A stretch of 52,945 bases of DNA from Clostridia bacterium (GTDB lineage: Bacteria; Bacillota; Sulfobacillia; RBS10-35; JADGHG01), in assembly GCA_019689585.1 (NCBI GenBank), contig JADGHG010000002.1:1-52945 (forward strand), in the 5' to 3' direction. The position numbers were made by a program, and so were the translations under genes. The notes under the pieces were generated by a model that worked only from the letters and a program-made list of their open reading frames with translations, searched no databases and had not been told where the DNA came from. The stretch's first letter is position 1, and each line of letters starts with the position of its first letter. Positions 40,049 through 52,895 of the stretch are shown piece after piece.

Positions 40049-41638
40049 GTGTACCGCGACCTGCGCGAGTTCCTCGCGGCGCTCGAGGCTCAGGGCGAGC
40101 TCGTGCGCGTGCGCGAGCCCGTCGACACCTACCTCGAGATGAGCGCCTTCGCCGACCGGGCCGTGAAGTCGGGCGGCCCGGCGCTCCTCTTCGAGCGGCC
40201 CGACCCGGGCCGGCTCCGGCGCCAGGGCATCGTCGACGAGGTGCGGGCGTCGGCCGAGGCGGGGCCCGTCGCCCCGCGGCCTTCGGCCGAAGCCCGGCCG
40301 GCCTGGCCGCCCTTGCGGCCGGACCCGGCGGCGGCGGCCATGCCGGTCGTCATGAACCTCTTCGGCAGTGAGCGGCGCACGGCGATGGCGCTCGGCGTCG
40401 AGGACCTCGCCGCCGCCCAGGCCAAGGTGGCGGAGCTCGTCGAGCTCGCGAAGGGCCCCGGCCCCGAGGGCGGGAGCCTCCTCTCGAAGCTCTCGCTCCT
40501 CCCGAAGCTGCGCGAGCTCGCCGCCATCGCCCCGCGGGTCGTCCGCACGGGGCCGGTGCACGAGCTCGTCGAGGAAGGCGAGGACGTCGACCTCGCGCGC
40601 CTGCCCGTCATCACCGCCTGGCCGGCCGACGCCGGCCCCTTCATCTCCCTCGCCTACGTGATCACGAAGGACCCCGAGACGGGGGAGCGCAACGCCGGCA
40701 TCTACCGCATGCAGGTCCTCGACGGCCGCACGACCGGCATGCACTGGCAGCTCCACCACGGCGGCGCCAGCCACTTCCGCAAGGCCCAGGCCCTCGGCCG
40801 GCGGCTCGAGGCGGTGGCCGTCCTGGGCGGCGACCCGGCGATCACGTACGCCGCGAGCGCGCCCCTGCCCGAGGGGATCGACGAGCTCCTCTTCGCCGGC
40901 CTCCTGCGCGGACAAGCCGTCGAGCTCGTCAAGGCGCGCACGGTCGACCTCGAGGTGCCCGCGCACGCGGAGATCGCGATCGAGGGGTACGTCGACCCGG
41001 CCGAGCCGCCCGTCCGCGAAGGCCCCTACGGCGACCACACCGGCTTCTACTCTCTCGCGGAGCCGTACCCGGCCTTCCACGTGACGGCCGTCACGAGAAG
41101 GCGCGACGCGATCTACCCGACGACGATCGTCGGGCGGCCGCCGATGGAGGACTACTTCCTCGGCCACGCCTCCGAGCGCCTCTTCCTCCCGCTCGTGCGG
41201 CTCATCCAGAACGAGGTCGTCGACTACCACATGCCGCCCGAAGGCGTCTTCAACAACCTCCTCTTCGTCGCCATCGACAAGCGCTACCCCGGCCAGGCCT
41301 TCAAGGTGGCGGCCGGGCTCTGGGGCATGGGGCAGATGAGCCTCCAGAAGGTGATCGTCGTCGTCGACGCGGACGTCGACGTCCACGACCCGAAGGAGGC
41401 CTGGTGGGCCGCGCTCAACCACATCGACCCCGAGCGCGACGTGCGCTTTTTCCCGGGGCCCGTCGACGTCCTCGACCACGCGTCCCGGCGGCTCGGCTTC
41501 GGCACGAAGATGGTCATCGACGGCACGCGCAAGCTGCCCGAGGAAGGCCACGACCGGCCGTGGCCGGCCCGGATCCGCATGGATCCGGCCGTCGAGCGCG
41601 AGGTGCGGGAGAGGTGGCGCGCCCTTGGGCTCCCTTGA
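40049..41638 (+). CDS. ubiD: UbiD family decarboxylase (menaquinone/ubiquinone-type prenyl-aromatic decarboxylase)
   Basis: '[14 protein letters not shown]', 'GGPALLFE', 'GIYRMQV', '[11 protein letters not shown]' and 'GRPPMED'. SD GGGGAGGGG is upstream of the GTG. Confidence 0.9.
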   Translation: [529 protein letters not shown]

Positions 41639-42587
41639 GGCGCGGGGGGGCGGATCCCCGAGTGCCTGGGGCGAGCGCCTTCTCGCGCGCGCGGCTCTCA
41701 AGGCCCGCGCGCTCTGGGACACGACGGTGCCGCTCCACGCCGTCTTCGGCCTCACGACCACCATTGCCGCGAGCGTCGTCGCCGTCTCGGGCTGGCCCTC
41801 GGGGGCGCAGCTCGCCTGGATCGTCGTGGCGCTCGTCTTCGGGCGCGCGGCCGGCTTCGGCCTGAACCGGGTGATCGACGCCCAGCTCGACGCGAAGAAC
41901 CCCCGCACGCGCAACCGGCCGATCCCGACGGGCCGGCTCACGCGGGCCGAGACGCTCGCCTTCAGCCTCGCCTGCCTCGCGGTCCTGGCCCTCGCCGCGT
42001 GGGAGCTGAACCCGCTCACGCTCTACTTCTTCCCGCTGGCCGTAGCCGGGCTCGTCGTCTACCCGTACGGCAAGTACCACACCTGGGCCTGCCACTACTG
42101 GCAGGTGTGGCCCCAGTTCTGCGGCCCCTTCGGCGCGTGGCTCGCCCTGCGCGGCGACTTCGCGCCGGCGGGGGTCGCCTTCGCGCTCGGCTACGCGCTC
42201 TGGGTGGCGGCCTCGGACATGCTCTTCCACGCCGGCGACCGGTCCTTCCAGAGGGCGGCCGGGGTCCACTCGGCGCCGGCCGACCTCGGGCTCGCGCGGG
42301 CCTTGCGGCTTGCCGGCGCGACGCACGCCGCGGCGCTCTCCCTGATCGCGCTGGCGGGCCTGCTCCTCGGCCTCGCCCCGGGCTACTTCCTCGTCCTCTC
42401 GCTCTGCCTGCCCCTCGTCGCGAACCAGTACCGGCTCGTCCTCCCGCCCCGGGGCGCCGGGGCGGGCGCGTCCGGCGGCCGGGCCGAGCCGGCTGTGCCC
42501 ATCGAGCGCGCCATGCTGGCCTTCAACACGAACGCGGTCGCGGGGCCGCTCCTTCTCCTCGCGGCCGTCCTGGGGGTGGCGGCGTGA
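41625..42587 (+). CDS. UbiA family aromatic prenyltransferase
   Basis: 'NRVIDAQLDAKNPRTRNRPIPTGRL' (NxxxDxxxD motif) and multiple TM helices. The exact start is uncertain. Confidence 0.85.
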   Translation: MGSLEARGGGSPSAWGERLLARAALKARALWDTTVPLHAVFGLTTTIAASVVAVSGWPSGAQLAWIVVALVFGRAAGFGLNRVIDAQLDAKNPRTRNRPIPTGRLTRAETLAFSLACLAVLALAAWELNPLTLYFFPLAVAGLVVYPYGKYHTWACHYWQVWPQFCGPFGAWLALRGDFAPAGVAFALGYALWVAASDMLFHAGDRSFQRAAGVHSAPADLGLARALRLAGATHAAALSLIALAGLLLGLAPGYFLVLSLCLPLVANQYRLVLPPRGAGAGASGGRAEPAVPIERAMLAFNTNAVAGPLLLLAAVLGVAA

Positions 42588-43276
42588 CGGCCGACGGCGC
42601 CGGCGGGGCCGCGAGGGACGCGTCCCGCCGCTTCGTGGTGGCCGTGACGGGCGCGAGCGGCGGGCCGTACGCCGTGCGCGTCGTGCGCGCGCTCCTCGCC
42701 CAGAGGGCGCGCGTCGACCTCGTCGTCTCCCCGGCCGGCCGCGTGGTGCTGGCCGACGAGACGGGCTGGCGGCCGGAGGGCGACGGCTTCGCGCCCGAGG
42801 TGACGGACCCGGTGAGCGGCTGGGTGCGGCCGCGGCGCCTCGTCGGCGGCTACCAGGCCGGATTCTGGGGCGAGGGCGAGCTCCACCTCTACGACGTCCG
42901 CGACGTCGCGAGCGACATCGCGAGCGGCAGCACGCCGGTCGACGGCATGGCCGTCGTGCCGTGCTCGATGTCGACGGTGGCCGCCCTCGCGACGGGCCAG
43001 TCGGCGAACCTCATCGAACGGGCCGCGGACGTCTGCCTGAAGGAAGGCCGGCGGCTCGTCGTCGTCCCGCGCGAGACGCCGCTCCACGCCCTGCACCTGA
43101 AGAACCTCCTCCGCCTCGCCGAGCTCGGCGTGCGCGTCGTCCCCGCCATGCCGGGCTTCTACCACCGGCCGACGACCGTCGCCGAGCTCGTCGACTTCGT
43201 CGCCGGCCGCTGCCTTCAGGCGCTCGGCGTCGCGGCCGGCCTCTCGCCCAGCTGGCAGGGGCGGCCCGAGCCGTGA
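42584..43276 (+). CDS. ubiX: flavin prenyltransferase UbiX
   Basis: GTGA overlap. 'VAVTGASGGPYAVR', 'VVPCSMSTVAALATG', 'RETPLHALHLKN' and 'PGFYHRP'. Confidence 0.9.
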   Translation: MTADGAGGAARDASRRFVVAVTGASGGPYAVRVVRALLAQRARVDLVVSPAGRVVLADETGWRPEGDGFAPEVTDPVSGWVRPRRLVGGYQAGFWGEGELHLYDVRDVASDIASGSTPVDGMAVVPCSMSTVAALATGQSANLIERAADVCLKEGRRLVVVPRETPLHALHLKNLLRLAELGVRVVPAMPGFYHRPTTVAELVDFVAGRCLQALGVAAGLSPSWQGRPEP

Positions 43277-44046: not shown

Positions 44047-44052
44047 TATAAT
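44047..44052 (+). promoter_or_regulatory. perfect -10 hexamer TATAAT upstream of the 44089 operon
   Basis: 'GGTATAATACGTAACGAA' is an AT-rich patch in GC-rich DNA, 36 nt before the ATG at 44089. No clear -35. Confidence 0.4.
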
Positions 44053-44088
44053 ACGTAACGAACGGCGGGTCGAGCGGGGGGTCGCCCC

Positions 44089-44895
44089 ATGGCTCTCCTC
44101 TTCGGGGCTGCGATGGCCACCGTGCTCTTGGGCCTGCTCGCGGCCGACGCGGTCTGGCACGAGGTGCGCCACACGCGCCGGAGCCTCGCCTACCTGGCCT
44201 GGGAGGCGGCCGGGTCTACCGCGGCCGCGCTCGCCGTCAACATCCTCCTCCTGCGCGCCTTCGAGCTCTGGGCCCGCGTCGTCCTCTTCTTCCTGATCGC
44301 GGCCTTCCTCTTCCTCGCCGCCGCCTACCTCACCGTCGAATCGTGGCGACGCGCGAAGATCCGCCGCTTCGACGCCCCCATGCAGGACCTGCGCCGGCGG
44401 CTCGGCGAGGCGCAGGAAGCCTTCGACCGCCTCACGTGGGAGATCCAGAGGCTCGAGCGCGAGAAGCGGGTCGAGCCGCGCGCCCAGGCGGACCCCGAGG
44501 AGAACTGGCGCCGCATCGTCCAGGGCTGGGAGAGCGCGCCCGGGCTCGCCCGCATCCGCTCGCTCAAGACGCACGAGTGGCGGGAGGAGGCGCGCGCCCT
44601 CGACGACCTCAAGCTCGAGGCGCGCCGGCGGGAGCTGGCGGGCGAACTCGCGGCCGCGCGCGACCCCGCCCGGCGCGACCAGGTCGAGGCCCAGCTCGCG
44701 ATCGTGGAGCTCGAGCGCGTGCGTCGGCGCAGCCCGCGCGAGAGCCAGGCGGCCGAGGCGGCCGAGAGCCCGCTCGAGGCGGCCAAGCGGCGCCGCGACG
44801 AGCTGGAGCAGGAAGTGCGGCGCATCCAGGTCGAACTGCGGGAGTTGATGCGCCAGCGCGAGGCCGTCCTGCGCGAACGCGTCCTCCTCGACTGA
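44089..44895 (+). CDS. hypothetical membrane protein: three TM helices plus long cytoplasmic coiled coil
   Basis: TM segments lie in residues ~1-90. The rest is E/R/L/A-rich heptad-like sequence ('LRRRLGEAQEAFDRLTWEIQRLEREKR', 'ELEQEVRRIQVELRELMRQREAVLRE'). Confidence 0.6.
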   Translation: MALLFGAAMATVLLGLLAADAVWHEVRHTRRSLAYLAWEAAGSTAAALAVNILLLRAFELWARVVLFFLIAAFLFLAAAYLTVESWRRAKIRRFDAPMQDLRRRLGEAQEAFDRLTWEIQRLEREKRVEPRAQADPEENWRRIVQGWESAPGLARIRSLKTHEWREEARALDDLKLEARRRELAGELAAARDPARRDQVEAQLAIVELERVRRRSPRESQAAEAAESPLEAAKRRRDELEQEVRRIQVELRELMRQREAVLRERVLLD

Positions 44896-44934
44896 GGCCG
44901 CGAGGCGCACGGGGCCGGGGAAGGGGGAGCGAGG

Positions 44935-45369
44935 GTGAGCCACGTCAGCCAGTACACGACGGACATCGTGTTTCGCACGGTGGCCGAGGGCGGGGCGCTC
45001 GAGGAGGACCCCGCCTGGGAGGTCCTGCAGGCGGCCGTGCAGGCGGCCGCCGAGACCCACGGCGGCCGCATCGACAAGACGGTGCGCGACGTGTTCGGCC
45101 GTCCCCAGCCGGTCGACCTGGCGCTGCACGTCGGCCACCTGCGGGGCGGCATCGGCATGGTCGTCGACCGGCGCACGGGGCAGCTCTCGTTCCTCTTCGA
45201 CGACTACGGGCACGTCGAGGAGTACCGCGAGCTCCGCGACGAGATCCTCCAGAACTACGCGGCCATCGCCGTCTCGCGCGCGCTCCGGGCGCTGAACTAC
45301 GAGGTCGACGTCGACCAGACGGGCCGGGGCGAAGACCGCCGCGTGCTCGTGCGGGGGGTGCTCGCCTGA
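44935..45369 (+). CDS. DUF1257 (Ycf35-like) family protein
   Basis: GTG follows AAGGGGGAG. It starts 'MSHVSQYTTDI' and has 'GGIGMVVDRRTGQLSFLFDDYG' and 'ILQNYAAIAVSRAL', consistent with the DUF1257 pattern as remembered. Confidence 0.65.
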   Translation: MSHVSQYTTDIVFRTVAEGGALEEDPAWEVLQAAVQAAAETHGGRIDKTVRDVFGRPQPVDLALHVGHLRGGIGMVVDRRTGQLSFLFDDYGHVEEYRELRDEILQNYAAIAVSRALRALNYEVDVDQTGRGEDRRVLVRGVLA

Positions 45370-45626
45370 TGCGCGAAGTGCGCGTGCGGATCGGCAAGGG
45401 CGGCCGCGTCGAGACCGACTTCCACGGCTTCCTCGACGACGACTGCCTCGAGGAGGCGGACCGGCTGGCCGCGCTGCTTTCGGGCCTCGGCCTCGAGATG
45501 AACTTGCGGGAGCGGGCGATGAAGACGATGGCGGCACGGCTGGGCGAAGCGGGCGTCGACGCGGGCGAGGTCGGCGCGAAGCCGCAAGAGGGGACGCGCG
45601 CGCGCGAGGGCCGGGTCGGCGGATGA
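45369..45626 (+). CDS. DUF2997-like small protein
   Basis: TGATG overlap. 'EVRVRIGKGGRVETDFHGFLDDDCLEEADRLAALLSGLG' fits the DUF2997 pattern (beta-hairpin, G..G..C, LG). The C-terminal tail is low complexity. Confidence 0.6.
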   Translation: MREVRVRIGKGGRVETDFHGFLDDDCLEEADRLAALLSGLGLEMNLRERAMKTMAARLGEAGVDAGEVGAKPQEGTRAREGRVGG

Positions 45627-45901
45627 CGCGCCGGCCGGCCGCCCCGATCGGCCGGAAGCCCAAGACGGTTCGCGCCCCCGGGCCTGGGGTGGCCGACGCG
45701 TCCCCGGCCAGGCGGCCGCTCGCCCGGCGGGCGGAGGCCGGGGCGGCGCGCTTGCCCCGCCGTCTCCTCGACGTCGACGTATTCGCGCAGCGGTTGGAGA
45801 TCGTCGAGCGGTACGGCGACGGCGCCGCAGACGAGCTCGCGCGGGAGCTCGCGCGGCTCGGGCTCGCCACGGCCCTCGCCTTCCGCTCGCCCTGCGGATG
45901 A
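45623..45901 (+). CDS. hypothetical 92-aa protein
   Basis: ATGA overlaps at both ends. Third-position GC in this frame is about 90% by hand count. The basic disordered N-terminus is followed by a helical 'LLDVDVFAQRLEIVERYGDGAADELARELARLGL'. Confidence 0.5.
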   Translation: MTRRPAAPIGRKPKTVRAPGPGVADASPARRPLARRAEAGAARLPRRLLDVDVFAQRLEIVERYGDGAADELARELARLGLATALAFRSPCG

Positions 45902-47700
45902 CGCCGGAGGCCGGCCCGGGCGGGCGCGACCCGGCCGAGCGGGCGCCCTTCGGCAGGACGCGGCCGGCCGGCCCCCAACGGGCCGCCCTCGACGCCGAGC
46001 GCGGGCCGTCGGCCGGGACGCCATCGGCCTCGGTCTCGGCGGGGCTCGACGAGCGCTGGCTCGAGCAGGCGATGCTCAAGCGGCGCGCGAACTACTCGCC
46101 CGTCATCTGCTTCGAGACGGCCGACCCCCGCCGCCTCCTCCAGCTCAAGGAGTACGTCCGCACGCACGAGGACCTGCGCCAGGCGGAGCATGTGTTCCTC
46201 TTCGACCTCTGGCAGGGGCTCTCGCGCATGGACGCCTCGGGCCGCTTCGCGCCCTACCGGAAGGCGGTGGCGGAGTCGCCGCTGCAGCGCTACGGGACGG
46301 CGGACGGGGCCGGCGTGCAGCTTGCGAGCTTGAAGCAGGCGCTCCGCGAGATCGACGGGTTCCTGCGCCGGCATCGCACGGTCGCCATCCTCCAGAACCT
46401 GGCCGAGAACCGCGAGTGGGAGACGGGTCTGCAGGGCGCGCTCCGCTCCTGGGCGATCGACGAGGACGTGCTCGCGCACGCCTCGACCGTCTTCGTCCAG
46501 ACGGCCGACGCCTCGGCGCTCCTCGACGCCTACACGCGCGAGCTCGTCGTCGTCGTCGAGGTCGACCCGAGCAGCGACGCCGAGCGCGCCTTCCTCATCG
46601 GCAAGGCGGCGGCCGAGCTCGAGGTGGCGCTCTCCGGCGACCGGCTGGGCGAGCTCGTCGCCGCCACGGCCGGCCTCAACCTGCACCAGGTCGAGAGCAT
46701 CCTGCTCGAGTCGTACCACGCCACGCGGGACTTCGACCTCACGCGCGTCAAGGACCTGAAGAGCGACCTCGTGCGACGCTCGCGCGTCCTCGACGTCGCC
46801 GAGCCCAACGCCTCCTTCCGCGACATCGGCGGGTACGAGGCCGTGAAGCGCTTCGTCGCGCGCGACATCGTGCGCGTCCTGAAGGAGGCCGGTCGCGCCC
46901 AGGCGTTCGGCGTGCCGCTGCCGCGCGGGATCCTCCTCTTCGGGCCGCCCGGCACGGGCAAGTCGCTCTTCGCCCGCGCCCTCGCGCACGAGGTGCACCT
47001 GCCGTTCATGCACCTGCACACGGAGAACATCTACTCCAAGTGGTTCGGCGAGTCGGGGCAGAACATGCGGCAGGCGCTCACCCTCATCGACAAGATGTCG
47101 CCCGCCGTCGTCTTCGTCGACGAGATCGACCGCTTCGGCCGGCGCTCGGGGGCCATGCGGGACTCGGCCGGCGAGGAGAGCCAGCGCGTGTTCTCGCAGT
47201 TCCTCGAGTGGCTCGGCCACCCCGAGCGCGAGGCCATCGTCGTCGGCACGACGAACGTGCCCGACCACCTCGACGAGGCCTTCATCCGGACGGGCCGCTT
47301 CGACTACAAGGTGCCGTTCCTCTACCCGGGCGCCGAGGCCCGGCTCGCGATCCTCAAGGTGCACCTCGGCCTCGTGCCGGGCACGCGCCGCCGCAGGCCG
47401 CCGCTCCTCGTCGACGAGGCCGAGCTCGTCGAGCATCTCGCGCGCGAGGTCGTGCCGAAGACGCGATTCTTCACGGGCGCCGAGCTCGAGGAGCTCGTGA
47501 CGCGCGCCAAGCGGCGGGCGTTCGCCTCGGACGCGCAGGGCGTGGCGCCCGACGACTTCATCTCGGCGGCCGAGAGTTTCCGCGTGCCGGTGGACGAGCG
47601 GCGGGCGAACCTCCGATACTACCTGGAGCAGGTGCGACGCTTCACCGACGACCGCGCCTTCGTCGAGGAGCTCGAGGAGGAGGCGCGAGAGGGAGACTGA
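45898..47700 (+). CDS. AAA+ ATPase, Ycf46-like (single classical AAA module after a ~340-aa N-terminal region)
   Basis: Walker A 'GPPGTGKS' (46942-46965), Walker B 'VVFVDEID' and SRH 'TTNVPDHLDEAFIRTGRFD'. An alternative internal ATG lies at 46072. Confidence 0.9.
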   Translation: MTPEAGPGGRDPAERAPFGRTRPAGPQRAALDAERGPSAGTPSASVSAGLDERWLEQAMLKRRANYSPVICFETADPRRLLQLKEYVRTHEDLRQAEHVFLFDLWQGLSRMDASGRFAPYRKAVAESPLQRYGTADGAGVQLASLKQALREIDGFLRRHRTVAILQNLAENREWETGLQGALRSWAIDEDVLAHASTVFVQTADASALLDAYTRELVVVVEVDPSSDAERAFLIGKAAAELEVALSGDRLGELVAATAGLNLHQVESILLESYHATRDFDLTRVKDLKSDLVRRSRVLDVAEPNASFRDIGGYEAVKRFVARDIVRVLKEAGRAQAFGVPLPRGILLFGPPGTGKSLFARALAHEVHLPFMHLHTENIYSKWFGESGQNMRQALTLIDKMSPAVVFVDEIDRFGRRSGAMRDSAGEESQRVFSQFLEWLGHPEREAIVVGTTNVPDHLDEAFIRTGRFDYKVPFLYPGAEARLAILKVHLGLVPGTRRRRPPLLVDEAELVEHLAREVVPKTRFFTGAELEELVTRAKRRAFASDAQGVAPDDFISAAESFRVPVDERRANLRYYLEQVRRFTDDRAFVEELEEEAREGD

Positions 47701-48848
47701 TGGCGACCTACCCCGAGCTTCTCTTCTCGCTCGTCCTCATCTTCGTCGCGGCCAAGCTCTTCACGAACGGCATCGAGTGGCTCGGTCGGCGCCTCGACCT
47801 CTCCCACGGCGCGACGGGGAGCCTCATGGCCGCCCTCGGCACGGCGCTTCCCGAGGCGATCATCCCGATCTGGGCCATCGCCTTCGGCTCGGGGGAAGTG
47901 AAAGAGGAGATCGGCGTGGGCGCGATCCTGGGGGCCCCGCTTTTGCTCGCCACGCTCGGTTTCCTCATCAGCGGGGCGGCGGCGTGGTTCTACTCGGCGC
48001 GCAAGCGGCGCGGCTTCTTCGTCGAGGTCGACCCGGGCACGCTCGGGCGCGACCTGCCGTTTTTCGTGATCGTGTACTCGCTCGCCGCCGTCGCCGGGCT
48101 CGTCCCGGGCTTGCGGCCGCTGCAGCTCTCGATCGCCGCGCTCCTCGTGCTTCTCTATGCGGGATTCGTCCTTGTGACGCTGCGGGCGCAAGGCGGCGCG
48201 GCGCTGGCAGAGGCCGCCACGGCCCCGGCCGGCGCGGGCGCGGGCGCGGCGCCGGCCGGCACAGCCGCGGCGCCGGCCGCGACGCCCGTCGCGGCGCCGA
48301 GCGGCGGGGAAGAGGGGCTGGGTCGGGCGGCGTCGCAGCATGCCGAGGCCGGACGAGGCGAGGTCGAGGTGGACAGGCTCTACTTCCAGCGGCGGCGCGA
48401 GGTGCCGGCGACGGCCATGGTGCTCCTGCAGGTGGCCGTCGGGCTCGGCGCCATGATCTTCGCCGCCAACGTCTTCGTCGACGCCGTCACGCAGGTCGCG
48501 AAGGCGCTCGGCGTCTCGGCCTTCATCCTGTCCGTGATCATCACGCCCATCGCCACGGAGCTCCCGGAGACCTTCAACAGCGTCATCTGGCTCGGCCAGC
48601 GCAAGGACACGCTCGCGATCGGGAACATCACAGGGGCGATGGTGCTGCAATCCTCGCTCATCCCCGCGATCGGGATCGCGTTCACGCCCTGGCGGCTCGC
48701 CGCCGACCAGCTCTGGGCCGTGGGCCTCGCCGTGGCGGCCGCCGCGATCGTGCTGCTCACGTACTATCTCGCGCGGCGCAAGGTGATGCCGCAGGTGCTG
48801 GTCTTGAACGGGCTCTTGTACGCGCTGTACATCGCCGTCGTGGCGTAG
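47700..48848 (+). CDS. CaCA family cation/Ca2+ exchanger (Na_Ca_ex, YrbG-like)
   Basis: TGATG overlap with the ATPase stop. There are two alpha-repeat halves ('GSLMAALGTALPE', 'ATELPETFNSV...GNITGAM') separated by an Ala/Pro-rich loop. Confidence 0.8.
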   Translation: MATYPELLFSLVLIFVAAKLFTNGIEWLGRRLDLSHGATGSLMAALGTALPEAIIPIWAIAFGSGEVKEEIGVGAILGAPLLLATLGFLISGAAAWFYSARKRRGFFVEVDPGTLGRDLPFFVIVYSLAAVAGLVPGLRPLQLSIAALLVLLYAGFVLVTLRAQGGAALAEAATAPAGAGAGAAPAGTAAAPAATPVAAPSGGEEGLGRAASQHAEAGRGEVEVDRLYFQRRREVPATAMVLLQVAVGLGAMIFAANVFVDAVTQVAKALGVSAFILSVIITPIATELPETFNSVIWLGQRKDTLAIGNITGAMVLQSSLIPAIGIAFTPWRLAADQLWAVGLAVAAAAIVLLTYYLARRKVMPQVLVLNGLLYALYIAVVA

Positions 48849-48924: not shown

Positions 48925-49629
48925 TCAGCCCGCCTTGACGATCTGCGCGAGCTCGCGGTACCACCTGAGCTTCTCGGCGTACGGAAGCCCGCTCCGGCCG
49001 CTCGGCGAAGGGAGCACGAAATCGCGTACCCCCGCCACCACGGAGCCGGGCTGGAGGCCGTAGGCGATCGCCTTTGTGTCGCGGCCCCCCCGGAACGCAG
49101 CGTACACCGCCTTCGCGGTATAGGCGGCCACGGCGGGACGGTAGATGGCGAGGATCTGCCGTAGGCGCTCGCGGCCCTGGGCGAGGTCGCGGGCCGTGAG
49201 ATCCGACATGCCCGGCGTGGGGCGCTTCACGATGTCGGTGAGGCCGATGCCGAGCGAGAGAAGCTCGGCATCGCGCTCGGGGCCCCAGCGGCCCGGCGTG
49301 AGGCCGGCGTCCGCCAGAAGACGCCAGAAGGCGTTGGACGGGGCGGCGTAGTAGTGACCCGCCTGCGACGAGGCCATCCCGGGGTTCGAGCCGACGACGA
49401 GAAGCGAGAGGCCCGGCCGCACGAAGTCGGGCAAGGCCCCCGGCGGAAGAGTCTCGCCCGGCAGAGCGCTCCTTGGCCCCGCGCCGGCTCGGCCCGTCAC
49501 GGGGGCGCCTGTCGAGGCCCGAGCGCCTTCCATCCCGACATCCCCATCCTCGACGCCGCCTTGCCGCGACCATAGCACGTCGCAGCCCGCGCGCCCCGCG
49601 GTGCCGTAGAATGTGGGGGGCCTGCGCAT
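48925..49629 (-). CDS. mug: G:T/U mismatch-specific DNA glycosylase (Mug/TDG, UDG family 2)
   Basis: 'LLVVGSNPGMASSQAGHYYAAPSNAFW' and 'VLPSPSGRS'. The start is uncertain, with an internal ATG at 49533. Confidence 0.8.
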   Translation of the reverse strand: MRRPPTFYGTAGRAGCDVLWSRQGGVEDGDVGMEGARASTGAPVTGRAGAGPRSALPGETLPPGALPDFVRPGLSLLVVGSNPGMASSQAGHYYAAPSNAFWRLLADAGLTPGRWGPERDAELLSLGIGLTDIVKRPTPGMSDLTARDLAQGRERLRQILAIYRPAVAAYTAKAVYAAFRGGRDTKAIAYGLQPGSVVAGVRDFVLPSPSGRSGLPYAEKLRWYRELAQIVKAG

Positions 49630-49697: not shown

Positions 49698-49773
49698 GGG
49701 CGAATAGCTCAGCGGCCAGAGCGCCTGGTTTACACCCAGGAGGTCACAGGTTCGAATCCTGTTTCGCCCACCA
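49698..49773 (+). tRNA. tRNA-Val (anticodon TAC), CCA encoded
   Basis: Cloverleaf folded by hand: acceptor GGGCGAA/TTCGCCC, D arm GCTC/GAGC, anticodon stem CCTGG/CCAGG with loop TTTACAC, T arm ACAGG-TTCGAAT-CCTGT, discriminator A, CCA. Confidence 0.9.
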
Positions 49774-49836: not shown

Positions 49837-51189
49837 TCACCCGCCCGTCGACGCGGCCTCGGCCGGGCCGGCCGCCTCGCCGAAGGGAGCGCGCACGACC
49901 CAAGAGGCCGCCAGAAGGAGTGCTGCGCCGATCGCCCAGAAGACGGACGCCTCGCCGGCCGCATTCCCGACGAGGCCGACGGCCGCCGGGATGCCGAGCT
50001 GGCCGAGCCGGTTTCCGGAGAGCCTCAAGCCGAGGGCCGCGCCGCGCTCGTCCGCGGGTGCGCGGCTCGCGACCCAGCTCATCGTGAGCGGCTGGCCGAG
50101 GCCGAGCCCGAGCCCGGCCAGAGCCATGAGGGCGCCCAGGACGGGCGACGGCGCAAGCGGCAGGGCGGCGACGGCGAAAGCGGGGACGATGGTCGACCAG
50201 AAGAGCAGGCGGGCGCGCGTCATACGGCGCAAAAGCCAGGCCATGAAGAGGCGGGAGACGAGCGAGGCGCCTCCGCGGATCGAGAGGAGGAGCCCGACGG
50301 TCGCGACCGACAGCCCGCGCGCCTCCCCGAGGACCGGGAGGTACGCGCTCAGGACGTCGATGCTCGACAGCACGGTGAGGCTCGCGAACATCGCGGGCGG
50401 CATGCCCGGCCGCAGGAGGAGGCGCGCGGTGCGCCGGGCGCTCGCGCCGACGGCTGCGAAGGAGCGCGCGGCGATCGACGGGGCCGGCCGCCGCACGACT
50501 GGGCCGGTTCCGCGTCCATCCACAGGGGGCTCGGGGCCAGCGGCTCGAGGTCCGGTCGCGCGGGCAAAGCCGAGCGCCGCGCGCGCGCCGAGGCCCAGGG
50601 CGGAGAGGGAGGCCAAGAGCGCGAGCCCGCCGGCCAGGAAGAACCCGGGACCGAGATGCCGCGCCGCCGATGTCCCGACGACGGCGCCCGCCAGGGCCGG
50701 GCCGGCCAGCTGACCGAGCGACGCCATCACCGTGTAGGCGCCGACCCGCTCGTCGCGCTGGGCGTCGGCCGTGCGGTTGGCGATGAGCGTCTGGCTCGCC
50801 ACGACGGCGAGGAGGTGTCCGAGGCCGAGAAGCGCCTGCGTGGCGGCGAGAGCCGGCACGGAGGTCGCGACCGACGGCGCGAGCGCACCCACGACCGCGA
50901 GGGCGGTGCCGCAGACGATGAAGGGCGGCTCGCCCATCCGGTCGACCCAGCGGCCGGCGGGAAGCGCGAGGAAGAGCGACAAGAGCGCGAAGGATGAGGC
51001 CACGGCGCCGACCCCGGCCGGGCTGGCGCCGAGAGCGAGCGCCTGGTAGGCGGCGAGCGGCCGGACGGCGTACACGGCCGCGTGGAGGCAGGCGTTGGCG
51101 ACGAGGACCTTCGTGAACCACGAGGGGTAGGACCAAAGGGCGCGAACGCGCACGGCGCGCCGCGCGGCGGTCACGGGCGATGGCGGCAT
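49837..51189 (-). CDS. MFS transporter
   Basis: About 12 TM segments and an 'LPAGRWVDRMG' loop. ATG at 51189 is chosen. The track ORF continues in frame to 51591 through Arg/Ala/Pro-rich repeats. Confidence 0.75.
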   Translation of the reverse strand: MPPSPVTAARRAVRVRALWSYPSWFTKVLVANACLHAAVYAVRPLAAYQALALGASPAGVGAVASSFALLSLFLALPAGRWVDRMGEPPFIVCGTALAVVGALAPSVATSVPALAATQALLGLGHLLAVVASQTLIANRTADAQRDERVGAYTVMASLGQLAGPALAGAVVGTSAARHLGPGFFLAGGLALLASLSALGLGARAALGFARATGPRAAGPEPPVDGRGTGPVVRRPAPSIAARSFAAVGASARRTARLLLRPGMPPAMFASLTVLSSIDVLSAYLPVLGEARGLSVATVGLLLSIRGGASLVSRLFMAWLLRRMTRARLLFWSTIVPAFAVAALPLAPSPVLGALMALAGLGLGLGQPLTMSWVASRAPADERGAALGLRLSGNRLGQLGIPAAVGLVGNAAGEASVFWAIGAALLLAASWVVRAPFGEAAGPAEAASTGG

Positions 51190-51344
51190 CAGGCCCGATG
51201 CTCGCACACCGCTCGGGCGCCCGCAAGCGAAAGGCGCAGGAGGCGGCCGAGGGCGCGGGGCCGTACGTCGCTGCGGAACTCGCCGCGCCCGGGAGCCGCG
51301 CGCCGCGGGGCGGGGCGTGTCCGCGGCGTGGGGCCGACGCCGGC

Positions 51345-51446
51345 GCGCGGACCCGGCCGCGGGCCGCGCTGCCCGCTTGTGGGGACGCGGGGGTGCGGAC
51401 CCGGCCGCGGCACGGGGCCGGCGACGGCGCGCGGACCCGGCCGCGG
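51345..51446. repeat. three copies of GCGGACCCGGCCGCGG with 48- and 36-nt spacing
   Basis: The 16-mer occurs at 51347-51362, 51395-51410 and 51431-51446. Confidence 0.7.
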
Positions 51447-51527
51447 CATGGGGCGCGCCGCTCCGGTCGCGGCCATAGCGCTGTGATACCGCCTTATCGG
51501 CGGCAGCGCCCGCCCGGCCGGCCGCGG

Positions 51528-51665
51528 TAGTGAAGCGCCACATCACTATCGGTGCCCCGGCGGGGCTAACTCGGGACCGGAGGTTCCCCATAAGATCAAT
51601 CCGCTTCGCTATGGTTGCGGGCCGCGACCGCCGGTGGGGCGATAGTGAGGTTTCACCTCACTATC
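51528..51665. promoter_or_regulatory. pair of related inverted repeats (candidate operator sites) sharing TCACTATC
   Basis: TAGTGA-N9-TCACTA lies at 51528-51548. A perfect 11-bp inverted repeat GATAGTGAGGT-TTC-ACCTCACTATC lies at 51641-51665. Confidence 0.4.
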
Positions 51666-51788: not shown

Positions 51789-51920
51789 CCGCCCGCTCCT
51801 CAGGCGCCAGCCGCCCGCTGCTCAGGCGCCGGCCGCCCGCTCCTCAGGCGCCAGCCGCCTGCTGCTCAGGCGCCGGCCGTCCGGTGATCAGGCGTCGGCC
51901 GTCCGGTGATCAGCTGCCGG
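51789..51920. repeat. six contiguous copies of a 22-bp tandem repeat
   Basis: Copies start at 51789, 51811, 51833, 51855, 51877 and 51899 (CCGCCCGCTSCTCAGGCGCCRG x4, then CCGTCCGGTGATCAG... x2). The last copy contains the iclR-family stop codon. Confidence 0.9.
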
Positions 51921-52677
51921 CCGCGTCCGGCGCGAGGCTCAGTTCGGCGGCTGCCTGACGCACGAGCTCCGCGAAGCGCGACACCGCCGCGTCGTCCAGG
52001 CGGTCGTCGGGGCCCCCGAGGCTGACGGATGCGACCACCTCGCCGCGCGTTCCGAAGACCGGCGCGGCGACGGCCGTCACGCCCGGCGTCAGGTGGCCGC
52101 GCGAGACGTCGTACCCGCGCTCGCGGATGCGCGCGAGCTCGGCCCGCAAGGCCTCGGGGTCGACGAGCGTGCGCGGGGTCATGGCCTCGAGCGGCCCGGC
52201 CAGGTATGCCTCGCGCTCGGGCTCGGGGAGATGGGCCAGGATGACGCGCTGAGAGGCGCCGGCGTGGAGCGGCGCGACAGCGCCGAGCTCCATCGTGAGG
52301 CGCAACGGATGGCGCTGGCTCTCGACCTTCTCGACGGCAACAGCCGAACGGCCCTGGCGCACGTTGAAGAACGCGCTCTCCCCGCTCTCCGCCGCGAGCC
52401 GCGTGAGCACTCCCCGGACGGCTGGGAAGCCGAGCTCCTCGCGAGCCGCCTGCCCGACCATCCAGGCGGCCAGGCCGAGCCGATACGCGCGCGCCGACCT
52501 GTCTCGCACGAGAAAGCCCCTCTCGGCCAAGGCGGCGAGCAGCCGGTGAGCGTTGCTCTTCGGAAGGCCGAAGGCCGCCGCCGCGCGGCTCGGGGTCCAG
52601 GCCCCCCCGTTCCGCGCGATCGCCAGAAGCAGCTCGAGGGCTTCGTCGACCGTCTTGAGCGGGGACGGTCGCGGCAT
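51910..52677 (-). CDS. IclR family transcriptional regulator
   Basis: N-terminal wHTH ('LKTVDEALELLLAIA', 'AAFGLPKSNAHRLLAALAERGFL') and a C-terminal IclR effector domain. ATG at 52677 is preferred over the track start at 52812. Confidence 0.85.
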   Translation of the reverse strand: MPRPSPLKTVDEALELLLAIARNGGAWTPSRAAAAFGLPKSNAHRLLAALAERGFLVRDRSARAYRLGLAAWMVGQAAREELGFPAVRGVLTRLAAESGESAFFNVRQGRSAVAVEKVESQRHPLRLTMELGAVAPLHAGASQRVILAHLPEPEREAYLAGPLEAMTPRTLVDPEALRAELARIRERGYDVSRGHLTPGVTAVAAPVFGTRGEVVASVSLGGPDDRLDDAAVSRFAELVRQAAAELSLAPDAAGS

Positions 52678-52895
52678 CTCCGCCGTCCGCCGTCCGCGTG
52701 GGACGCGAGCCACGCTCCGCGCCTCCCCCCGTCCTTCGCGCTCACCGCACCGGGGCGCGGCGTCCGCGAGCCTCTCGCCGCCACCGGCCGGCTCCCCGCA
52801 CCGCGTTTCCATATACCGCCGCGCCGCCTCCTTCGGCGCCCGGGGAGACCGCTCCTTTGCCCGCGCCCGGCTCGTCCTCGCTTCGTCGATCGCCC

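Follow-up and report, generated by a model that had tools for sequence, protein, structure and literature searches.

The window analysed here, a stretch of 52,945 nucleotides from the assembly of a Clostridia bacterium (GCA_019689585.1, contig JADGHG010000002.1), carries an operon in which genes for DUF1257- and DUF2997-like proteins stand together with a gene for an AAA+ ATPase. We find that the conserved unit consists of five genes in fixed order, named p1 to p5 here, and not of the six described in the original prediction, the sixth (p6) encoding an ion exchanger of the CaCA family. The five genes encode a membrane protein (p1), a divergent relative of DUF1257 (p2), two DUF2997-like proteins (p3 and p4), the second of which ends in Cys-Gly, and an ATPase predicted to have a Cdc48-like build (p5). 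Our preferred explanation, which we consider to have an even chance of being right, is that p1-p5 constitute a self-contained operon for an unfoldase tethered to the membrane and its thiol-bearing cofactor, substrate or switch, which is made up of three parts. The neighbourhood of AAA, DUF1257 and DUF2997 genes is already present in databases, where it is uncharacterised. What is new is its fixed five-gene form with a membrane partner, the identification of p4 as a DUF2997 paralogue with a Cys-Gly end, the fusions among the small proteins, the degenerate D1 domain of p5 and the recurrent adjacency of the p5 family to Bub-like genes.

The five-gene unit was defined by its neighbourhood in other genomes. 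Searching GTDB species genomes with p2 returned 18 loci, all 18 of which hold the cassette, and a scan of metagenomes with the N-terminal domain of p5 gave 80 further loci. The locus set comprised 109 loci in total, with a GC content ranging from 0.32 to 0.76; at a p5 identity cutoff of 95%, 75 were non-redundant. The order p1-p2-p3-p4-p5 is kept in 44 of the 51 non-redundant loci with sufficient upstream DNA, 3 more lack only a detectable p4, and p5 identity drops to about 32–43% among the loci that keep the gene order. The original prediction had pointed to a co-occurrence of the AAA+ ATPase with DUF1257 and DUF2997, and had named a gene order conserved in no relative as an outcome that would speak against it; the co-occurrence proved to be a real and recurrent neighbourhood, and the order is conserved in relatives. 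Median spacers across the loci are short (p2-p3 −1 nt, p1-p2 9 nt and p4-p5 17 nt).

The genes flanking the cassette vary from lineage to lineage. One close, syntenic relative is a Bacillota metagenome-assembled genome (MAG), with a p2 that is 68% identical and synteny running from UbiD through to the UDG-superfamily gene. Candidatus Fermentithermobacillus and its relatives (p5 53–56% identical) have the five genes in the same order and no exchanger, their products being a membrane/helical protein of ~285 aa, proteins of 146 aa, 75 aa and 60–70 aa, and a 562-aa AAA protein; their flanks differ from those of the window, with an AIRS-family gene upstream and NifU downstream. Clustering the flanks of 77 loci recovered no more than a single lineage's synteny (AIRS, DnaE-like, methyltransferase, NifU and SipL), and a functional meaning of the AIRS, NifU, DnaE-like and SipL neighbours was rejected for that reason. 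Searches of viral contigs, phage records and plasmid collections did not turn up the cassette. Nor was a cultured host of the cassette found, i.e., every cassette locus with an organism name is a MAG and the others are metagenome contigs. The nearest p5 homologue (85% identity, partial) is labelled as a 'Dactylosporangium sp.' MAG and the cassette locus L013 as 'Acetobacteraceae'; both contigs are probably mis-binned, since all other hits are Bacillota/Clostridia MAGs.

Within the window, all six predicted open reading frames (ORFs) are present on the plus strand at the coordinates given in Table 1. The four overlapping junctions that couple p2 through to p6 could be read directly, as could the perfect TATAAT ahead of the p1 start codon, and a single, tightly packed same-strand operon is supported. 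A consensus scan of the operon returned no −35/−10 pair, so that the TATAAT stands without a −35 partner, and no terminator was found inside the operon. The window is 74% G+C and long ORFs are therefore expected by chance, e.g., one of 1200 aa lies on the opposite strand. The six frames nevertheless carry the codon-position signature of a high-GC genome and are coding: their G+C content is 0.89–0.97 at third codon positions (GC3) and 0.41–0.63 at second positions (GC2), whereas long alternative ORFs have a GC3 of 0.55–0.76. Composition is uniform, with a GC of 0.736 in the cassette and 0.738 in the window, and as such there is no sign of a recent transfer of the cassette.

The motifs ascribed to p5 were all recovered in its 600-aa translation, namely Walker A GPPGTGKS, Walker B VVFVDEID and TTNVPDHLDEAFIRTGRFD, and the Pfam family AAA (PF00004) matches residues 345-473 at 1.7e-32, with a lid domain (AAA_lid_3) further on. 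The pore loop SKWFGES and the arginines of the second region of homology (SRH) are likewise seen in the translation, giving p5 the full set of classical-clade AAA+ features, i.e., Walker A, Walker B, SRH and pore loop 1. Its best sequence matches in the PDB are the D2 domains of VAT/p97/Cdc48 (E 5e-72, residues 270-571 only), and it has 1385 homologues at E<=1e-20. The label 'SpoVK/Ycf46/Vps4 family' attached to p5 homologues by JGI is the generic name of COG0464, and the Pfam and NCBIfam matches include no Ycf46 model.

The N-terminal region of p5 had been described as non-AAA, a description that its predicted structure overturned. An AlphaFold2 (AF2) model of residues 46-341, with a predicted local distance difference test score (pLDDT) of 85.6, gave 138 Foldseek hits in the PDB at E<=1e-3, and among the matches listed 50 of 50 were AAA+ proteins, including RFC, clamp loader, Rix7, Rubisco activase, RuvBL and Trip13. 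At the place of Walker A the domain carries SPVICFETADPRR. From an AAA+ fold combined with the lack of a Walker A motif, p5 is predicted to have a Cdc48-like build in which a degenerate, inactive D1 precedes an active D2 with the SKWFGES pore loop. Nucleotide motifs in both domains, as in a type II tandem AAA+ protein, were not found in p5, nor was a Cdc48 N-domain. An N-terminal extension of 45 aa, rich in Pro, Gly, Ala and Arg (GC2 0.80), is unique to the window, homologues measuring 557–565 aa; it is included because the ATG at 45898, which overlaps the p4 stop, is the sole in-frame start 5' of the conserved p5 N-terminus. p5 also matches the phage family phrog_8638 at 2e-51 over residues 55-520, including part of the degenerate N-domain. 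Analogies to HORMA/TRIP13, to an HslV-type Ntn hydrolase and to ESCRT-III/PspA were considered and dropped, having no support from folds or hidden Markov models.

The assignment of p2 to a DUF1257/Ycf35-like family starting with MSH (the gene begins with GTG and reads MSHVS) was borne out, although not by the route originally proposed. DUF1257 (PF06868) does not match the p2 of the window at E<=0.1, and none of 80 homologues found with a word index carries a precomputed Pfam domain. An exhaustive search with the p2 profile reached 407 proteins, many of them of ~130 aa and with an MSH start; 24 of 38 of these ~130-aa proteins match PF06868 (best 9e-16), and the set includes a RefSeq 'DUF1257 domain-containing protein'. 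Comparison of the p2 family with the canonical DUF1257 set by hhalign gave a probability of 100% (E 2.7e-40, 126 columns). On the strength of this alignment and of the MSH-starting PF06868 members, p2 is assigned by profile comparison as a divergent DUF1257-superfamily protein that escapes the Pfam model; it has a 13-aa insertion relative to canonical DUF1257. Its AF2 model (pLDDT 87) is a beta-alpha-beta4-alpha-beta2 sandwich, for which Foldseek returned nothing better than E 0.13 in the PDB, with a weak likeness to TBP-like domains, e.g., PGM domain 4, and one 147-aa viral protein in BFVD (A0A7S5REL3, E 3e-4, TM-score 0.63). Position 60 of p2 is Cys in 90% of 72 family members and Val in the window; the closest relatives (P0001-P0003) have Cys there, unlike the window.

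The DUF2997-like nature of p3 is supported at family level. The p3 of the window scores 13.5 bits against PF11211 (DUF2997), under the cutoff of 24.1, whereas 12 of 14 members of its family match at E<=1, the best at 1.8e-5. The family shares the motif GF-G-x-x-C with annotated DUF2997 proteins, and its Cys is invariant in 79 sequences. Beyond these family-level comparisons, direct scans of p1-p4 against Pfam, NCBIfam, PADLOC and PHROG returned nothing significant, and p2, p3 and p4 profiles run against PDB sequences retrieved only noise and designed helical proteins.

The 92-aa ORF p4, for which no family had been recognised, belongs to a conserved one. Its N-terminal ~40 aa are variable and of low complexity, and are followed by a conserved core of ~50 aa that terminates in Pro-Cys-Gly, with the stop codon directly after. 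A C-terminal Cys-Gly is found in 66 of 67 distinct p4 homologues, mostly as [ST]PCG, and is also kept in a lineage of 45% GC with a p5 only ~43% identical. There is no match for p4 in Pfam, PHROG, PADLOC or the PDB; hhalign aligned the p3 domain with the p4 core at 91.5% probability (E 8.6e-7), which marks p4 as a conserved DUF2997-like protein and probable paralogue of p3. The small proteins are also found joined. At least 14 proteins are p2+p3 fusions, and one 271-aa protein (P0232, locus L111 3407-7500) combines p2, p3 and p4, ends in ...RSMCG and is followed by the ATPase. From these fusions we infer that the three small proteins act as one functional unit. An in-frame p4-p5 fusion in L020 (2043-3935), in which the PCG end is lost, was set aside as a probable frameshift or assembly error.

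The product of the first gene, p1, begins with about three hydrophobic helices (residues about 2-21, 33-56 and 60-82), followed by a tail of 182 aa that hydropathy and composition suggest to be helical (46% D/E/K/R and 6% P+G). Its matches in the libraries are weak and of coiled-coil type (FtsL, SMC and JetC). A p1 homologue lies 5' of p2 in 44 of 51 loci. In L111 the membrane partner is instead 3' of the ATPase, where a 532-aa protein combines multiple transmembrane segments and a coiled coil; the membrane protein therefore appears to be part of the system, its analogue retained in L111 and relocated.

Taken together, the five products would fit a motor with a dedicated small complex. We suggest that p5 acts as a hexameric unfoldase or remodelling motor, that p1 would hold this motor at the membrane, and that p2, p3 and p4 would form a 1:1:1 complex serving as its dedicated cofactor, substrate or regulator. 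The free Pro-Cys-Gly tail of p4 and the invariant cysteine of p3 would provide the functional tip of the complex. This tail may be a terminus engaged by the pore or ring of p5, or a thiol/metal (redox or sulfur) site that gates the complex, or a modifier-like end, as is hinted by the E1/E2 neighbours of distant relatives described below.

Comparison with known systems brings out both the likeness and the differences. With Cdc48/p97/VAT and Vps4-type ATPases p5 shares the pore loop, Walker A and B, the SRH arginines and two stacked AAA+-fold domains, and Cdc48/p97/VAT also work with small dedicated cofactors, as suggested here for p5. Unlike in these proteins, the first AAA+ domain of p5 has no Walker A and should be unable to bind nucleotide in the usual way, and p5 has neither a double-psi barrel nor an MIT N-domain. 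The partners of p5 are the DUF1257/DUF2997 proteins and the membrane anchor; a proteasome, ESCRT-III or PspA partner was not detected. The nearest comparison for the cassette as a whole is with the canonical DUF1257/DUF2997/AAA+ neighbourhoods, in which homologous small proteins are encoded near a classical-clade AAA ATPase, and a third small ORF lies beside or between the two DUF genes, as in the window. Examples are L027 (DUF1257, DUF2997 and a small ORF) and L110 (DUF1257, a DUF2997-like gene, two small ORFs, a 613-aa AAA gene and a coiled-coil protein). The window cassette departs from them in its fixed p1-p2-p3-p4-p5 order with a membrane partner and in the 13-aa insertion of p2, and the p4-type C-terminal Cys-Gly is missing in L110. 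Ycf46 (slr0374 / Synpcc7942_0417) and p5 both have one active AAA module after a long N-terminal region, and the sequence pattern of this region seems alike in the two. In cyanobacteria, expression of ycf46 is linked to stress, and the ycf46 operon of S. elongatus comprises three genes, Synpcc7942_0416-0418 (10.1101/2025.07.21.665879).

Several points weigh against a membrane-tethered unfoldase with a thiol-bearing cofactor. The p2 of the window lacks the conserved Cys60, so an essential three-cysteine site is unlikely. The p5 relatives in loci L091 and L092 have no p1-p4 and stand with genes for ubiquitin-like proteins (Ubl), E2 and E1 instead, which indicates that the ATPase is able to function with other partners. 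That p1 forms a coiled coil has been deduced from its composition only, and the physical links proposed among p1-p5 are read from their genes. Furthermore, the literature found on DUF1257 (Ycf35) and DUF2997 concerns cyanobacteria and algal plastids and gives no biochemical function, and a search on DUF1257, DUF2997, Ycf46, Ycf35 and cyanobacterial locus tags found no mechanism for the AAA/DUF1257/DUF2997 combination.

The best-placed alternative, which we regard as possible although improbable, is that the module serves a ubiquitination-like or conflict pathway of bacteria as its effector or reader arm, with p5 acting like Cdc48 on tagged proteins. On this account p2-p3-p4 would be a tag, adaptor or decoy, the terminal Gly of p4 might be activated by an E1 encoded elsewhere, and the copies found in Bacillota would either stand alone or have been domesticated. 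It draws on the neighbourhoods of distant relatives, where Multi_ubiq, Prok-E2_E and JAB-ThiF(E1) fusion genes adjoin p5-family genes in three divergent lineages with differing arrangements. These genes are upstream of p1 in L028 (1430-5095) and L096, and directly 3' of p5 in L091 (3771-6322) and L092. In L102 (1497-4451) the E2 is fused to a Ubl and the E1 to a JAB domain; a p2+p3 fusion lies farther along, and there is a HerA-like (DUF87) ATPase as well. The neighbours in these three relatives resemble the Multi_ubiq/Prok-E2_E/JAB-ThiF systems of the Aravind type, and the two fusions of L102 match the BubAB/BubCD layout of Type I Bub operons, i.e., a Ubl-E2 fusion and a JAB-E1 fusion (10.1101/2024.11.21.623966). 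The same work on Bub/Bil operons describes as unknown what Ubl conjugation leads to in bacteria (bioRxiv 10.1101/2024.11.21.623966), which leaves room for a reader of this kind; an AAA+ partner is not mentioned in the Bub preprints (incl. 10.1101/2024.11.21.623966), and no DUF6527/BubE was seen.

Other distant loci have neighbours that would also suit such a pathway. L085 (1122-17662) is flanked by genes for a 2148-aa protein with no Pfam match, a GrpE-like protein, Hsp70, a coiled-coil membrane protein and an S-layer/FGE-sulfatase protein; the gene 3' of p5 encodes an FGE-sulfatase protein in L088 (5130-7022) and a transmembrane WD40 protein in L087 (4671-6269); and TPR genes occur elsewhere. 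A relative of the module lies on plasmid p2 of a cultured strain of Planktothrix agardhii, NIVA-CYA126/8 (L112, NZ_LR882936.1 46586-50206), where the RefSeq annotation lists an AAA family ATPase, ASCH, a hypothetical protein, DUF6876, DUF2997, a hypothetical protein of 96 aa and DUF1257, on a plasmid that also carries KilA-N, HTH and HU genes. The Planktothrix ATPase has 492 aa and is 26% identical to p5 over residues 94-507 only. With relatives near ubiquitination-like modules, near Hsp70/FGE-sulfatase genes and on a cyanobacterial plasmid, the earlier statement that a conflict role is less likely was not justified.

What keeps this alternative below the membrane-tethered unfoldase is the situation in the window and in its own phylum. 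Homologues of E1, E2 or Ubl were found neither in the window nor in a single Bacillota locus, which sets the window apart from Type I Bub operons. The p4 protein ends in Cys-Gly and not in Gly-Gly, so that the beta-grasp/Gly-Gly/cognate E1 pattern of Ubl proteins and sulfur carriers (ThiS/MoaD/SAMP, Bub/Bil) is not seen, and the sequences of p3 and p4 do not resemble those of the adjacent Multi_ubiq proteins; kinship of p4 with these was rejected at an hhalign probability of <1%. PADLOC-DB 2.0 gave no match or coiled-coil noise for p1-p4 and generic AAA hits only for p5 (IetA 6e-29, TRIP13 9e-11), with no partner proteins. No p5 homologue was found in viral contigs, and in phage or plasmid collections no homologue spanned 80% or more of p5. 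In the Bacillota clade the cassette sits stably among housekeeping genes, keeping its AIRS, NifU and DnaE-like flanks across 53–60% p5 identity, unlike mobile defence islands.

A somewhat less probable alternative takes p2-p3-p4 to be a carrier of thiol, sulfur or metal (Fe-S), or a redox sensor, which the ATPase would load, unload or reset. By analogy with DsrC/TusE, which have a penultimate Cys on an arm, and with HypE and its C-terminal Cys, p4 might present its penultimate Cys on a flexible C-terminal arm. The proposal would account for the fact that each small protein has one conserved Cys (p2 90%, p3 100% and p4 66/67), although p2 of the window has Val at this position. A NifU-domain gene is directly downstream in 18 loci (20 including more distal ones) and an AIRS-family (ThiL/SelD/HypE-like) gene directly upstream in 27 loci (31 in all), but both neighbours reflect a syntenic block confined to one lineage, and the window has neither of them. 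In L090 the gene on the downstream side is of the radical-SAM type. The duf2997 and ycf35 (DUF1257) genes of Synechocystis are clustered with fed7, a partner gene that encodes a ferredoxin and not an ATPase (PMC4284462). However, no homology to a known sulfur carrier or Fe-S protein was found, and a carrier or sensor would leave the need for an unfoldase and a membrane anchor unexplained.

The Pro-Cys-Gly end of p4, which is kept in the p2-p3-p4 fusion (there as ...MCG), invites a bolder thought, about as doubtful as the carrier, that it represents a new protein 'tail' chemistry coupled to a Cdc48-like motor. Such a tail may be a minimal ubiquitin-like or thiol-carrier modifier, which the ATPase would read or recycle once its Cys-Gly had been activated, conjugated or loaded; alternatively, it may be a pore-engaging tail, with the DUF1257-DUF2997 complex as a redox-gated switch for a membrane-tethered unfoldase. 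If true, the p5 family would be the missing downstream 'reader' of bacterial ubiquitination-like pathways, and there would be a first functional handle on ycf35/DUF1257 and DUF2997. The adjacency to Ubl modules bears on what follows Ubl conjugation in bacteria, in the absence of a link between ubiquitin and a proteasome. The operon itself joins DUF1257 and DUF2997 to a probable Cdc48-like ATPase and a membrane anchor, with the terminal Cys-Gly as a sharply defined element.

The sixth gene was correctly identified as a CaCA exchanger: PF01699 (Na_Ca_ex) matches p6 at 1.2e-24 in two repeats, about 10 hydrophobic segments agree with the two-repeat, multi-pass architecture of CaCA proteins, and TIGR00367 matches at 1.5e-20, under its cutoff. 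The exchanger of the window has 382 aa compared with 328 aa in L001, the surplus being an Ala/Gly/Pro-rich, low-complexity stretch in the central loop. The claim that it is hard-wired to the module did not hold. An exchanger is found 3' of p5 only in the window's subclade, i.e., the window, L001/L009, L114, L115 and L116 (p5 67–85% identical), the gap to p5 is 87–330 nt in L001, L114 and L116, and the genes overlap (TGATG) only in the window; the exchanger is absent from about 70 other cassette loci and none appeared in the clustering of flanks of 77 loci. It is a clade-specific passenger outside the conserved module, and its translational coupling arose only in this genome. The idea of an ATPase-driven ion/envelope-stress module working with or on the exchanger, which had been the working hypothesis and drew only on this lineage-specific gene, is the least probable of the alternatives: the coupling in the window, the exchanger in five subclade loci (including L116 with its different upstream context), the placing of the system at the membrane by p1 and, as a loose lead only, the reported Ca2+-dependent behaviour of bacterial Ubl proteins in Bub/Bil operons (10.1101/2024.11.21.623966) speak for it, but the module works exchanger-free in most organisms.

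Table 1. Features of the operon and its surroundings in the window
Feature	Coordinates	Strand	Basis or remark
Candidate -10 element TATAAT (perfect)	44047..44052	+	putative; 36 nt 5' of p1 ATG 44089; read from sequence
p1, membrane protein, 268 aa	44089..44895	+	hydropathy, composition
p2, divergent DUF1257 (Ycf35-superfamily), 144 aa	44935..45369	+	GTG start, MSH N-terminus; profile-profile comparison
p2/p3 junction TGATG	45367-45371	+	read from sequence
p3, DUF2997-like, 85 aa	45369..45626	+	family-level PF11211 matches
p3/p4 junction ATGA	45623-45626	+	read from sequence
p4, DUF2997-like, 92 aa	45623..45901	+	homologue set, hhalign
p4 conserved core	45743-45898	+	~50 aa
p4 Pro-Cys-Gly end	45890-45898	+	
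p4/p5 junction ATGA	45898-45901	+	read from sequence
p5, AAA+ ATPase, 600 aa	45898..47700	+	Pfam AAA, AF2 model and Foldseek
p5 N-terminal extension	45898-46032	+	45 aa
p5 predicted degenerate AAA+ 'D1-like' domain	about 46033-46800	+	no Walker A
p5 Pfam AAA	46930-47316	+	residues 345-473
p5 lid (AAA_lid_3)	47431-47559	+	
p5/p6 junction TGATG	47698-47702	+	read from sequence
p6, CaCA (Na_Ca_ex) exchanger, 382 aa	47700..48848	+	Pfam Na_Ca_ex, two repeats
p0, 189 aa, one N-terminal hydrophobic helix	43386..43955	+	homologues in L001, L003 and L114
UbiD (529 aa), UbiA prenyltransferase (320 aa), UbiX-type flavoprotein (228 aa)	40049-43276		tight same-strand cluster upstream
UDG-superfamily gene	48925-49629	-	convergent
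tRNA-Val(TAC)	49698-49773	+	
MFS transporter	49837-51591	-	~160-aa Arg/Ala-rich N-terminal extension ahead of MFS domain
IclR-family regulator	51910-52812	-	

Directly upstream of p1 the window has a further gene, p0, which has no Pfam match and is absent in L116 and every other lineage; it probably lies outside the module, being kept 5' of p1 only in the closest relatives. In the UbiD-UbiA-UbiX cluster ahead of p0 the UbiD and UbiA genes overlap (41625-41638), and the cluster is kept in L001 and L114.

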